The position numbers were made by a program. Shown piece after piece: positions 3,001-9,000 of a stretch of 64,000 bases of DNA. Numbering within the stretch: the first letter of the stretch is position 1; every line of letters starts with the position of its first letter. This DNA comes from a plasmid. Where the stretch lies: NCBI RefSeq assembly GCF_988242995.1, contig NZ_OZ547044.1; one strand, 5' to 3'.

Positions 3001-6000
3001 CGATACGGGGGTGGTGGTGCGGCTGGCCGGTGATGACCGCCCCTGGAACCCCGGGGCCATGACCGGTGGGCGGGTATGGGCTGAACCTGCGCCGGTGGCT
3101 CCGGTACCGCAGGCCGGGGCTGACATTATCCTCCCGCCAGAGGTACTGGCACAGCGGGCGGCTGAAGAACAGCAGCGCCGGGAAATGGAAAAACAGGCGG
3201 AACAGACTGCCCGGGAAGTGGCCGGGGAGGCGCGTAAAGCCGGCGAGCCGGCGGACCGGGTGAAAGAGGTTATCGGGGACGTCATTCGCGGACTGGAGCG
3301 TGACCGGCCGGGTACGGAGAAAACGACGCTACCGGATGATCCTCAGTTCCGGCGCCAGGAGGCGGCGATTCAGCAGGTGGCCTCAGAACGTCTGCAGCGT
3401 GAGCGTCTGCAGGCTGTGGAGCGTGACATGGTTCGTGACCTTAACCGCGAGAAAACACTCGGGGGCGACTGACGCGCCTGCGGCTTGTCTGCACCGGCAG
3501 CCTCCCCGATTAAAATCGGGCAGTCTGCCGGTGCGCTAAAAGGAAAAAAATATGAGAGCACAATACACATTTCCAGGCGCGACAGACAGCTGGCTTCAGC
3601 GCCTGCTGACCTGGACACCGGGACAAACGGATATGATTAAAACGGTCGCACTGGTACTGATGGTGACTGACCACACCGGCTTACTGCTGGCCGGAAACAA
3701 TGAAGTGATGCGCCTGCTGGGACGTGGTTGTTTTCCGCTGTTCGGTCTGGCATGGGGAATGAATCTGGCCCGGCACGCGGAAATACGCCAGTCTCAACTG
3801 AACAGCCTGTGGGGCTGGGCGCTGGTCGCCCAGGTGTCGTTTATGCTTATTGGATACCCGTGGTATACCGGGAATATTCTGTTTGCCTTTGCCGTTACGG
3901 GCCAGGTCCTGCGGTGGGTCAGCCAGCCGTCCTGGTATTACACCCTCCCGGCGGCTGGACTGCTGGTCACCTGGATACCCCTGTCAACCGGCAGCTACGG
4001 CATGGCCGGAGTGGGCATGCTCACCGCCAGCTGGCTGCTTTGTCGCGCACAGCATGCACCGGAACGGCTGGGATACGGGGTGCTGTGGGCCCTCATGGTG
4101 TTGCTGATGAATATGCATGACGTGAGTGAATCAGTGGCCGGGCTGGCGATTGCGCTGCTGACGCTGATGGTGTGCTCATCTGCCGGAGAACGTGTGAAAC
4201 GCTTCTGGCCGCGGCAGTTCTTCGTGATGTTCTATGCCGTGCACCTGGCGGTACTCGGTATTGTCGTCTCGATGTAAAAAAAAACCGGACACAGGTCCGG
4301 GGGCGGGCACATTGCCCGTAAACGTGACAAAGGGGACATCATCGTTGTGTCCACTGCATTGCGAGGTGAAACGATGATACCGTTAGCGTATCGTATACCT
4401 CAGACCTGTAGCTTTTATTGATATGGCCCCTTATGAGTGAAGAAAAACGCCCTGTACTGAGCCTGAAACGAAAACCGGCGGAGAACAGTACGACCTCCGC
4501 AGAGGCGACCCCTGCTCCTGGTGTGGTGCGCCGAAAGAAGGTCGTGGTGGTCTCGTCCCCGCCGGCCTGGAAGGCAAAAAAAGAGAAACTTGAGAAGGTT
4601 AAACAAGCGGCCGAAGCCGCCGCGCGCAACGCTGCGCCGGTGCCGGTTAAAGCGGTAAAGACGCCACCTCCGGTGCATTATCTTCGCCTGCTGCCGCCGG
4701 AACAGGCCATCATGACCCTGAAGGCATTCTGGCCACAGCTGTTCGACGGAAACTCACCCCGTCTGCTGGCAACGGGTATGCGCGAACAGCTGTTCGCCGA
4801 CATTGTGAACCGCGACCTGCCGCTGTCGCATAAACAGGTCATTAAGTGCCTGAAGAGTCTGACCCGGTCTGCGGGCTATCTGTCCCGGATGAAGGTGGGG
4901 GCCTCCCGCTATGATCTGCAGGGGAATGCCGTCGCGACCGTCACTGCAGAGGAAGCGCAGTACGCCAGTGAGCGCATGATGAAGGAGCTGCTGCGGGCTG
5001 AACGAAAGATGAGTCAGACCCTTTAATTATATTTACCCATTCCTGATAATTATACCTGGGAATCCTCAGCTAATAGATGTAACGAAAATTAGCTGAGGGT
5101 ATGCCTGAAATAGCAACAGGTATTCATTTTATATTTGCCGCATTACAGGCTGCGGCATCATAACTGTCCGTGCAGACAGATTCTGGATGACGATGACTGA
5201 AAAAATTATTGCTCTCGTAGATTATGAAAATATTGGTACACTTGAAAGTGTCCGTCTGTCCCGTTATGAACGCCTTATTTTATTTACCGGGCCTCAGCAG
5301 GAGTTTATACGTTTTCCAGCTGTAACGTATGCAGGTGATATATCGGTAAGCGTATTCCAGGTTGCGAATGTGTCAAAAAATAATGTGGACTTCCATCTGG
5401 TGTTTGAGCTGGGAAGACTTAGCGCGACTGCACCGGAAGAGATGATATTTCATATTATCTCGAATGATAAAGGCTATGATGGCGTCATTGCCGAGCTATG
5501 CAGGGCGGGGAGACGATGTTGCCGTATATCATCGCCTTGCTCTGCAGAGAAACCGAAGGCGGCACCTATGGTAATCAGTAACGATGAAGTGCTGCACCTG
5601 ACCGATAAAGTCCAGTCATTAAGTAAAAAATCTGCAGGGAACCGCCCGGCGAATACTTCATCCCTGATGAATTATATTAAATCCCTGTCCGGTAATACAA
5701 AAGGCATGGCGCTTTATGGTCGCGTTAAAGAGGAATTAATCAGGCGTGGTGTGATTGCGGTGTATGAGAAAACAGTGGTCTGGCGATAATGAAATTAAGA
5801 CGGCTGTGAATGTTATTTTTATCTAAAAAGGAATCAATATGTTCAGATATTTCATTCTGCGCCCTGAGCAGCAGTTATTCTGTTATTTATACGGCTGCGC
5901 GCTGGCACTGGTTCAGATGGTTTTATTTTCTCCTGTATCCCGGGCAAGCGGATTTTATCTGGTTGCGTTATCTGTCGCGCTGTTCTGGGCAGGCCTTGCC

Positions 6001-9000
6001 CTGTACACCCGGCACATCGACCGGATGAGAAAGCCAGAGGTCTCACCGCTGGTCAGTATTCGCGACGGTATTCAGGTGGTGGCCGAGGTGCCGCGCCATG
6101 AAAAGGCCCGGCTGGAATGGGAAATCCTCCGGGATGATGAGATGTTTCGCCAGCAAAGGTGTGAGCTTACAGGCCTGACCGGACGGGTTATCAGCCGGGG
6201 GCTGTTGTATACGCCGGCGGTGATGCTGGTCGGTATCGGTATTCTCGCCTGGGGTTCCCCACAGGATGCCATCCGGCTGATTAATGCTCTTCGTAATATG
6301 CCTGCTGCGGAACTGGTGCATCAGATTGGTTTTGTCCTGTGCCACTTCCTGCAGATTAGCGTCATATCAGTTCTGATTGCTGATGTTGTAGCCGGGAGAG
6401 GACTGCCGAATGTATTTCGCCGCGCGTTGCTCGACAGGCTGCCGGCAGAGTTCTGCCTTATCAGAAGAGGGACAGAAAGATGAGGAAGACGACAGGAAAA
6501 CGCATCGGGAAAGAAAGGAACATCAGGGAATAAAATACATGGCAAAGATATTAATGATGGCGGGCAGTACCGTTGTTGTGCTGAGTTTGCTGGGATTTCT
6601 GGTGCTGCTTCTGAAAGGACGCGCAGTAACGAAGACTTCCCCGGTTCTGAGGTCACTGAAAGCCCTGGGTATTCGCCCCTCAGAGGCTGAGCAACGGTTG
6701 TGTCGCCAGCGGGTCTGGGTGGGTAATGACACACTGATGACGCCACGGGAACAACATTTTTTCCGGGCATTGCTGAGGCATACCAGCCGAACACGCTGGC
6801 TGTTGTGTCCTCAGGTCCGGGTGGCAGATATTGCCACACTCTCTCCCCATATCCGGCCACGATCCCGGACCTGGTGGCAACTCTTCCGGATGGCATCACA
6901 GTGGCACTGCGATGTGGTCATCGTTGACATCCATACCTTCGCTATCATCGGCGCAGTTGAACTGGATGATGCCTCACACCAGAAAAAACACCGTATCCGG
7001 CGCGATATTCTGCTGGAAGAGGTTCTGAGGCAGGCCGGCATTCCACTACTACGCGATCGGGATTCGGAGAGTCTGGTAAGAAAGGTCGGAGAGTTTCTGA
7101 AATACCGCGGAGCCGATGCAGCCGAAAAATCCATAACCGGTATGAATTCAACGACAGAGCATACTGAACGCAAGGAGAATGAAAAATGATTATCGCCGCC
7201 GAAGTGAAACGTGATGAACAGGGGTACTGGACACATCCTGCGCTGGTACGAAGTGGCTGTGAAACTTCCGCAGAATTAAGTTACTGGCTCAGAACCCATA
7301 AACTCCAGTGCTTTGTGATAACAATGCGCGATGAAGCGCCTGAAGCTTTCGCTGCCGGATTTACGGATGAAGCCCCGAATGCCCGTGGCTGGATACCGGA
7401 GCCACCGGATGATGATGGCTGGTTTCTGGGATCTGTCCACGATACCGGCGACGGACCCGTCTGCTACTGGTTTCGTCATACCACAAAATCCTGACGCCTC
7501 CGCATCGCGTCGTTGTCCAACCTCGGGAACGGGGAAAAGCCAGTTTCCCCGCTCCCGGCGTTTCTTAAACACCCGTTAAGGAAATACTGTGAAAAAAATG
7601 AACCGTACGCTCCGCAGATGTTGTCTGTCCGGGCTTATCAGCCTGTCTTTGTTTGCACCAGTTCCGGCCGTGTATGCCGCCAGCATCGAGACGGGGTATT
7701 CGCCGGAAGGAACGGCTCTGCAGCTGGTCCTGAAGACTATTAATTCTGCACAGCAGGAAATCCGGCTGATGGGCTATTCCTTCACCTCACCCGAAGTCGC
7801 CGGCGCGCTTGTCAGGGCAAAACAGCGTGGTCTCGATGTGAAAGTGGTTCTGGACTGGAAAGCCAATACAGGCAGGCAAAACAAGGCGAGTCTGGCGGCC
7901 ATGAATCTTCTGGTCAATGCCGGTATCCCGGTTCGCACAGTGTCGCAGTACAAAATCATGCACGATAAAGTCATTATTGCTGACGGCCGTAATGTTGAAG
8001 TGGGGTCTTTTAACTACACTCGAGCCGCTGATCGGTTCAATTCAGAGAACGTGCTAGTCGTGTGGGATGAACCAGTCGTTGCTCAACGCTATCTCCAGCA
8101 CTGGCAAACTCGGTGGGAGATGGGAAAAGACTGGAGTTCCTCGTATTAACCTCCTCGCTCAATAGCCTGCTCATTGCGCCAACAAGGGCAGGTTATATAA
8201 CAAAAAATAACGTAACTCTCGCTGCATCCAGCGACGTGTAGTATCTTTGTTCAAGTATTCAGTTATATGCTTGAGGAGGCAGAGATGTCACAGGTCGTTA
8301 ACGGAGTTACTTCCTCATCTAAACGTCCCTATAGGAAGGGCAACCCTGTTTCTGCGGCAGAACGTCAGCAGAAAGCTGTTGCCCGAAAAAAAGCGACGCA
8401 CAAAGAGGTGAGAGTATTTGTGCGGGACAAGCTTAAAAACCAGCTTCAAATCATGTGTGAGAATGAAGGAATTACTCAGGCAGCAATGATTGAGAGGCTG
8501 ATTGAAAGGGAATCTGCGAAACTAGGAATCGACGTAACGACGTCACATTCTTGATCATGCCTGCTATGAGTGCTAGATTACTGAACGTTTAGAATTCTTG
8601 GCTGGCCACACCATAAGGTGGCAGGGAGCTGGTTTTGTGGATGTTTACCCGGAACCAGAAAGTAAAAACCCCGATAATCTTCTTCAATCTTGGCGGAAGG
8701 AAAAGATTAACGGGGCCCTCATAAACTGCATAGAAGCTGTTGCTCTATGCAGGGAGTATATGTACATGCTCAGAAAACTTCAAGCTCAGTTTCTGTGTCA
8801 TTCGCTCCTTCTGTGCAACATAAGCGCAGGAAGCGGTGACTGATCATAACCAACAAAGCTCATGCAAGTATGTTCAGGTAAACAATCCTGAACCTGTTTT
8901 CACGGTTCCCCAGGACTACACTCCCTGGCCTTTCTCGCTGAAACTTATGGTAAAAGCCAATGGTTTCACTGAAAGCTTCAGTTTCGATATCGCATCAGCG

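Follow-up and report, generated by a model that had tools for sequence, protein, structure and literature searches.

We analyzed a 64,000-nt stretch of plasmid DNA (contig NZ_OZ547044.1 of RefSeq assembly GCF_988242995.1; hereafter, the window) with attention to four genes, ORF1 to ORF4, located between the transfer gene finO and a gene of a PLD-family nuclease, upstream of the replication genes copB and repA. The explanation we favor, with a probability of about one half, is that the finO–copB interval is a variable cargo slot and that the four open reading frames (ORFs) are independent, individually selected accessory genes acting singly in competition between mobile elements. The slot would be bounded by finO, as the end of an F-type transfer operon, and by copB, as the start of a RepFII replicon. 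ORF1 and ORF3 are of known kinds, ORF4 is of a family catalogued in phages and ORF2 is an orphan; all are annotated hypothetical cargo of a very common plasmid lineage, Klebsiella IncFII(K). The first-pass annotation of this DNA had placed four co-directional ORFs at 5187–7494; these limits turned out to be exact, on the plus strand.

The four ORFs are real genes under purifying selection rather than chance frames, since all have full-length homologues (30–80% identity, and at the lower end down to 25–40%) and since the ratio of non-synonymous to synonymous substitution rates (dN/dS), computed pairwise against diverged plasmid copies, is 0.07–0.33 at dS up to 1.5. The range is 0.19–0.31 for ORF2 and 0.17–0.33 for ORF3; the value for finO is 0.16. 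The 2308-nt block carrying the four genes recurs with 100% identity in many IncFII(K) plasmids of Klebsiella, e.g. pKDO1. Of the 2423 plasmid records that match the block, 2307 come from Klebsiella; in 1090 the match extends across at least 80% of the block. Counted by family, there are 3186 plasmid records for ORF1, 1693 for ORF2, 2812 for ORF4 and at least 5000 for ORF3 (tblastn), the latter mostly conjugative plasmids of E. coli and Klebsiella. The G+C content changes in steps, from 59% in finO to 44.6% in ORF1 and 53–55% in ORF2 to ORF4.

Considering the slot in other plasmids, we saw that the four genes do not form one discernible system. Some plasmids share with the window only nt 1–680 of the block (ORF1) or nt 1–1264 (ORF1 and ORF2); others share only nt 638–2308 (ORF2 to ORF4), nt 1274–2308 (ORF3 and ORF4) or the final 83 nt of ORF4 (megablast). 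Locus L165 has the order finO-DsbA-PIN-ORF2-DUF2726-PLD, without ORF4; L166 has finO-DUF6404-ORF2-DUF2726-ORF4, without ORF1; in one plasmid the PIN gene is the lone family member after finO. In L137, a K. michiganensis plasmid, ORF2 is degraded, and in H262 the block is interrupted by ISKpn26. The slot of E. coli IncF plasmids holds a small ORF, a PIN/NYN gene (34–41% identical to ORF1), a DUF2726 gene and, often, hok. The slot of R100 holds an ANR-like gene, a staphylococcal-type thermonuclease gene, hha and the ORF3 homologue yihA, with no PIN gene. A hidden Markov model (HMM) search of the finO–copB interval of plasmid F found none of the four families. As plasmid F is proficient in transfer and replication, the four genes are not needed for these F-type functions. 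An earlier suggestion that they are conserved F-like backbone genes holds in part: the DUF2726 (yihA) gene stands beside copB in the records counted above, R100 included, and a PIN gene is found repeatedly behind finO in IncF plasmids of E. coli; the set of four, with its partial combinations and its complete absence from F, is a mosaic.

The functional part of the favored explanation, competition between mobile elements, we hold with moderate confidence. We infer it from the company found in the slot (hok, a bacteriocin with its immunity gene, three other nuclease types), from the phage early regions in which relatives of ORF4 reside, and from accessory presence and absence. The occupants of conflict type are hok, an S-type pyocin with immunity gene, the thermonuclease and the Nuc/DrmC-like PLD nuclease. 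The two predicted nucleases, ORF1 and ORF3, would cut foreign or rival RNA and DNA, the ORF3 protein (YihA) doing so on the cytoplasmic side of the membrane; ORF4 would come from a phage and would modulate host or defence. Genes for carbapenemases and extended-spectrum beta-lactamases are carried mainly by IncFII(K) and IncF plasmids, and the four genes ride on thousands of these plasmids, kept by selection. Should the predicted nucleases keep out phages or rival plasmids, this would help to account for the coexistence and persistence of particular plasmids in clinical E. coli and Klebsiella; otherwise, the genes are simply well-described hypothetical cargo.

Several points weigh against this explanation. 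None of the models of PADLOC-DB 2.0 and NCBIfam matched ORF1 to ORF4. The catalytic role given to conserved residues of ORF1 and ORF3 is taken from knowledge of their families. Both predicted topologies were derived from the positive-inside rule: N-out/C-in for the ORF3 anchor, with the nuclease domain cytoplasmic, and N-in/C-in for ORF2, with a conserved basic cytoplasmic loop of ∼60 aa. Recurrence of the same families in one F-like slot, together with the order PLD-ORF2-ORF4 on a MOBP plasmid, could reflect functional cooperation instead of shared habitat. Finally, the near-universal place of yihA just upstream of copB could indicate housekeeping for the replicon.

The last point leads to an alternative in which the genes serve the plasmid itself: the NYN RNase would act on regulatory RNAs that the plasmid itself encodes (FinP, CopA, tra or repA transcripts), trimming them or turning them over, and YihA would process the plasmid's DNA at the membrane in the course of transfer or replication. 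Such roles would suit genes that have the gene of an RNA chaperone (finO) on one side and the copB/CopA/repA unit, under antisense control, on the other; their expression resembles that of distal tra genes, and it is in E. coli IncF and R100 that yihA is almost always directly upstream of copB. However, F transfers and replicates without all four, the PIN gene is missing from R100 and from many Klebsiella relatives, chromosomal homologues of ORF1 exist without plasmid context, and presence or absence differs among near-identical backbones. Weakened by the absence from F and by the patchy distribution, the housekeeping role appears unlikely.

One could also speculate that ORF2, ORF4 and the PLD nuclease, perhaps with YihA, make up one cooperative module, in which ORF4 would be a nuclease inhibitor or immunity partner, or would form a sensor–effector pair with ORF2. 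In six F-like loci (L017–L020, L104, L105) an ORF2-family gene overlaps its direct neighbour ORF4 by 4 nt; in the window the two are separated by the DUF2726 gene. The order PLD-ORF2-ORF4 with a 17-nt ORF2/ORF4 overlap is found on the unrelated MOBP plasmid, and in the window the acidic ORF4 protein (isoelectric point, pI, 4.9) is encoded just downstream of the basic YihA (pI 10.4). Nevertheless, every pairing breaks somewhere. R100, the E. coli IncF plasmids and L165 have YihA but lack ORF4; ORF4 is found without YihA in L017–L020, L106, L112 and phages, and with neither YihA nor ORF2 in L112, L110, L137 and all phage and chromosomal loci; ORF2 is found without ORF4 in L165 and L022. This pattern rules out YihA and ORF4 as a nuclease–immunity pair of obligate co-occurrence, as well as ORF2 and ORF4 as an obligate pair. 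Moreover, four unrelated genes serve equally as the upstream partner to which ORF4 is coupled. We explain the ORF2/ORF4 linkage by a habitat in common and by selection that favors translational coupling of ORF4, and see no obligate partnership in it; the module stays a live rival of rather low probability.

The MOBP arrangement itself was seen at 4328–6003 of L106/L109, downstream of a trbC-like gene, on a plasmid with IncI-like trbA/B/C genes and a backbone unrelated to that of F-like plasmids; a DUF2913 gene comes next in L106/L107.

With respect to ORF3, the DUF2726-like assignment made at first pass was borne out by a Pfam match to PF10881 of 78.2 bits (cut-off 24.7; 6e-22); matches to MTES_1575 and DUF559 were weak. 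DUF2726 is a PD-(D/E)XK family grouped with Vsr and DUF559, and its function is not known (PMC3424549). The protein is 51–53% identical to YihA of R100 and E. coli IncF over the whole alignment and 57–58% identical over residues 28–193 (tblastn). Residues D125, E141, D143 and H147, a putative catalytic D...E-x-D...H motif, are invariant in this comparison, and the hydrophobic N-terminus is retained; in ORF3 the latter is a single 22-residue hydrophobic helix (residues ∼5–26) followed directly by five K/R. We characterize ORF3 as the counterpart of R100 YihA on this plasmid: a predicted nuclease of the Vsr-like PD-(D/E)XK type that would be held in the inner membrane by one N-terminal helix. 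The gene shares its finO–copB position with yihA of R100, L002 and L003, on the same side of copB; the difference from R100 is that here ORF4 and the PLD nuclease gene intervene between ORF3 and copB. Two papers describe the plasmid yihA as the chromosomal GTP-binding cell-division protein YihA/EngB (PMC4794485, PMC4155114). This GTPase assignment is a name collision, through which a wrong function was propagated.

A narrower version of the competition idea makes YihA an entry-point defence that cuts DNA of phages or rival plasmids as it crosses the membrane, with ORF1, ORF2 and ORF4 as further independent weapons or counter-weapons and the slot as a hotspot of defence and counter-defence. Membrane-associated nucleases cutting invading DNA at entry resemble YihA in concept only, through the nuclease domain held at the inner membrane that is predicted for YihA; no PADLOC defence model is related to YihA by sequence. 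We consider this version quite unlikely; the widespread, membrane-anchored YihA predicted nuclease is, together with the nuclease-rich variable slot, the most interesting remainder of the analysis.

Low expression of the genes and their frequent loss, truncation and IS insertion (ISKpn26 in H262, ORF4 stumps, the degraded ORF2 of L137) would be expected of largely neutral hitch-hikers between two essential regions. The dN/dS values given above argue against neutrality, as do invariant putative catalytic residues and full-length conservation at identity as low as 30–40%, and we regard hitch-hiking as very unlikely.

ORF1, listed at first pass as a possible NYN/PIN-like protein, matched Pfam PIN7 (PF18475) above threshold (75.4 bits, cut-off 34, residues 10–104). 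Nuclease-related folds had been proposed for this group of genes, and profile searches did return them, as PIN7 for ORF1 and DUF2726 for ORF3. In the AlphaFold2 model of ORF1, built with 20 homologues (pLDDT 85), an alpha/beta domain is joined by a linker to a C-terminal domain of three helices and two strands; the modeled architecture is a NYN-type PIN-like domain (residues ∼7–115), a disordered linker (118–127) and a winged-helix domain (∼132–199). The first domain has the three-layer alpha/beta/alpha fold resembling solved NYN domains. D12, E14, D68 and D94, putative acidic metal-binding residues, are invariant in the 20 homologues, down to 30% identity. On this model, ORF1 is a stand-alone NYN-type PIN-like predicted nuclease joined to a winged-helix domain. 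Proteins that combine a NYN domain with a nucleic-acid-binding helix-turn-helix (HTH) domain are predicted to cleave RNA as self-contained enzymes (PMC5499597), and ORF1 matches this layout. Its closest known counterparts are NYN/LabA-like PIN nucleases with an attached RNA-binding HTH, of NYN + OST-HTH/LOTUS architecture (MARF1 NYN, PDB 5YAA; VPA0982, PDB 2QIP). It differs from them in falling into Pfam PIN7, not NYN PF01936; its C-terminal domain resembles generic winged helices (cullin WHB, GntR, MCM8), and the Pfam OST-HTH model gives no match to it. Chromosomal PIN7 homologues (in Permianibacter, an Enterobacter species and others) are solitary among unrelated genes; therefore, ORF1 does not need plasmid neighbours. 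An addiction, toxin–antitoxin-like stabilisation by a PIN toxin and a neighbouring antidote is highly improbable: even though PIN domains are the commonest type II toxins (PMC5499597) and hok/sok occupies the same slot in other plasmids, ORF1 is NYN-like and not VapC-like, it overlaps with no small antitoxin gene (its nearest neighbours are 160 nt away upstream and 49 nt away downstream), its downstream neighbour varies and its chromosomal homologues stand alone, so that a VapBC-like reading, which calls for a small overlapping co-varying partner gene, was rejected.

Just downstream of repA, the related F-like plasmids L017–L019 carry the gene of a canonical 240-aa NYN + OST-HTH protein and, after it, a DUF2913 gene (∼10357–11698 / 9042–10383). 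DUF2913 is downstream of repA also in pKDO1 (L001, 15863–16474), which is identical to the window over the aligned block. With the NYN + OST-HTH gene present downstream of repA in relatives, F-like plasmids can carry two different NYN-type predicted nucleases, which may flank the replicon, one on each side.

ORF4 has the size reported at first pass (102 aa), and a Pfam search with it found no family. An HMM search gave a match to the phage family PHROG 1372 (E-value 1.7e-27, residues 2–101). The structure model was confident, and no solved structure resembling it was found. Relatives were detected in 81 phage records and 408 IMG/VR stretches. In phage mEp213 the relative is located in the early-left operon, between N and cIII/kil/erf/abc2; lambdoid early-left neighbours of such relatives are abc2 (anti-RecBCD), kil and cIII. 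The P1-like phage D6 carries a relative as well (orf96). Members of PHROG 1372, early-region proteins of temperate phages such as mEp213 gp45 and D6 orf96, are 36–40% identical to ORF4 across its whole length and share with it the invariant motifs G-x-W-x-H-P and G-W-F-x-G-S-x-H. ORF1 to ORF3 are never near the ORF4 homologues of phages and genomes. In phages the gene stands alone, or its product carries extra segments fused to the N- or C-terminus; the plasmid copies differ from them in being translationally coupled to the upstream gene. In the window the ORF4 start overlaps the ORF3 stop in an ATGA, with an AAGGAG Shine–Dalgarno sequence; ATGA-overlapping starts are located at 7186 in the window, 6702 in L017, 6684 in L020, 5708 in L104, 1988 in L105, 6001 in L110 and 7569 in L021. 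Four unrelated gene families precede ORF4; among its upstream partners with ATGA are the DUF2726 gene, a TrbF-like gene and a gene whose unrelated product is a two-helix membrane protein of 180 aa. The DNA before ORF4 is likewise unrelated, save for a GGAG-type Shine–Dalgarno sequence inside the preceding gene. ORF4 is translationally coupled to any gene that happens to come before it.

ORF2 was rightly called a membrane protein: four helices are predicted, with hydropathy peaks near residues 13–31, 37–55, 121–139 and 163–181, and the loop 59–127 contains 12 K/R. Residues W50, D61, R62, R64, K89, A90 and W94 are conserved in the family, and an AAGGA Shine–Dalgarno sequence precedes the gene. 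Among 1.84 billion representative proteins only 54 relatives were found (HMMER), ∼10 of them full-length and diverged. Searched by itself, the sequence matched nothing meaningful in Pfam or the PDB; for the family, comparison with Pfam (members scanned singly) and with the PDB (profile of the family alignment) gave noise only. ORF2 is of a small orphan family restricted to plasmids; every context recovered for the family was a conjugative plasmid. For the four proteins together, PDB sequence and family searches recovered only Pfam PIN7, DUF2726 and PHROG 1372.

Table 1. Features of the finO–copB slot and its borders (positions in the window)
Feature	Coordinates	Strand	Description and evidence
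finO	4418-5026	+	Upstream slot boundary; Pfam ProQ/FinO 9.9e-20, FinO_N 6.5e-07; RefSeq annotation of identical pKDO1
ORF1, 200 aa	5187-5789	+	NYN-type PIN-like domain + C-terminal winged-helix domain (predicted)
ORF2, 214 aa	5839-6483	+	Predicted four-helix inner-membrane protein, orphan family
ORF3, 216 aa	6539-7189	+	R100 YihA homologue: predicted N-terminal membrane anchor + DUF2726 domain
ORF4, 102 aa	7186-7494	+	Small acidic alpha/beta protein, phage family PHROG 1372
PLD-family endonuclease, signal peptide	7589-8149	+	PLDc_2 3.1e-26; PDB 1BYR (pKM101 Nuc) 9.4e-55
copB/repA2 replication regulator	8267-8554	+	Downstream slot boundary; RepB-RCR_reg 6.4e-35
CopA RNA	8660-8748	minus	Rfam, 85.9 bits

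The gene order at 3552–10381 of the window is traX, finO, the four ORFs, the PLD-family nuclease gene, copB, CopA RNA (minus strand), the tap leader, repA and IS26 (Table 1). The reading frames had been described as overlapping or closely spaced. The short gaps are there (160 nt between finO and ORF1, 49 nt between ORF1 and ORF2, 55 nt between ORF2 and ORF3, 94 nt between ORF4 and the PLD gene), and the sole true overlap is that of ORF3 and ORF4 (ATGA, 4 nt); an overlap of ORF2 and ORF3 was an artefact of starting ORF3 at 6410, the first in-frame ATG. That start was ruled out by the RefSeq start at 6539, which has an AGGGA Shine–Dalgarno sequence 10 nt upstream and from which the protein aligns with R100 YihA beginning at Met1; with it, ORF2 and ORF3 are separate. 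The PLD protein matches DrmC-type and NucT-type models below their cut-offs (PADLOC, NCBIfam). Rfam found no known RNA inside the block; CopA, downstream, was the sole match.

The finO–ORF1 spacer (40% G+C) contains hairpins at 5062–5100, 5101–5123 and 5136–5157 on the plus strand; a U-rich tract (5124–5135) follows the second one only. The predicted RNA fold of 5020–5200 has an energy of −48.5 kcal/mol (z −2.65 versus shuffles), and the first hairpin has a perfect 11-bp core within a predicted stem of 13 pairs (CCTCAGCTAAT/ATTAGCTGAGG). A promoter and terminator scan produced no more hits than in shuffled sequence, and the consensus terminator scan did not report the second hairpin. The hairpins at 5062–5157 are probably a terminator or attenuator after finO. 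In the transcriptome of a syntenic IncFII(K) plasmid, with gene correspondence taken from order and names, finO has a value of 72 and copB one of 643; of the genes in between, the four have 11, 14, 13 and 35 and the nuclease gene has 13 (PMC6286996). These low values, along with the hairpins, fit weak expression of the four genes, which would depend on transcripts reading through the terminator hairpin behind finO, or on a weak promoter belonging to the four genes.

Regarding other contents of the slot, genes for an S-type pyocin (klebicin) and for its immunity protein have replaced all but a stump of ORF4 and the PLD gene in IncFIB/FII plasmids of the pKpQIL-like kind. In L108 (NZ_CP086668.1, 1718–4836) the two genes abut the stump, which is the C-terminal half of ORF4, just upstream of the PLD nuclease gene and copB. 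Many records match the window at 7412–7494 only; the ORF4 stump marks a scar of recombination. Two further orphan families without Pfam match occur in the slot: a soluble one of ∼92–113 aa with a conserved HxxxRDDxIRxL segment and one of ∼180–197 aa with two N-terminal membrane helices. They were located at 4294–4635 and 5462–6004 of L110, 5557–5835 of L112, 4411–5004 of L104 and 5490–5693 of L017. The gene tir of R100 (RP4 transfer inhibition) is presumably a CPBP-type gene beside pemIK, downstream of repA. As a candidate for one of the four genes it was rejected: papers put tir on IncFII plasmids without giving a position, and no link was found.

Downstream of the slot, the repA region (8836–10381) consists of two overlapping ORFs, each annotated as RepA in RefSeq. 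The first (183 aa) matches positions 6–178 of the IncFII_repA profile; in the second (335 aa), residues 169–308 match profile positions 112–243. The first ORF seems to encode the N-terminal part of a truncated RepA, and the second a longer Rep protein whose N-terminal half (∼170 aa) is unusual. IS26 begins directly after these ORFs, at 10410.

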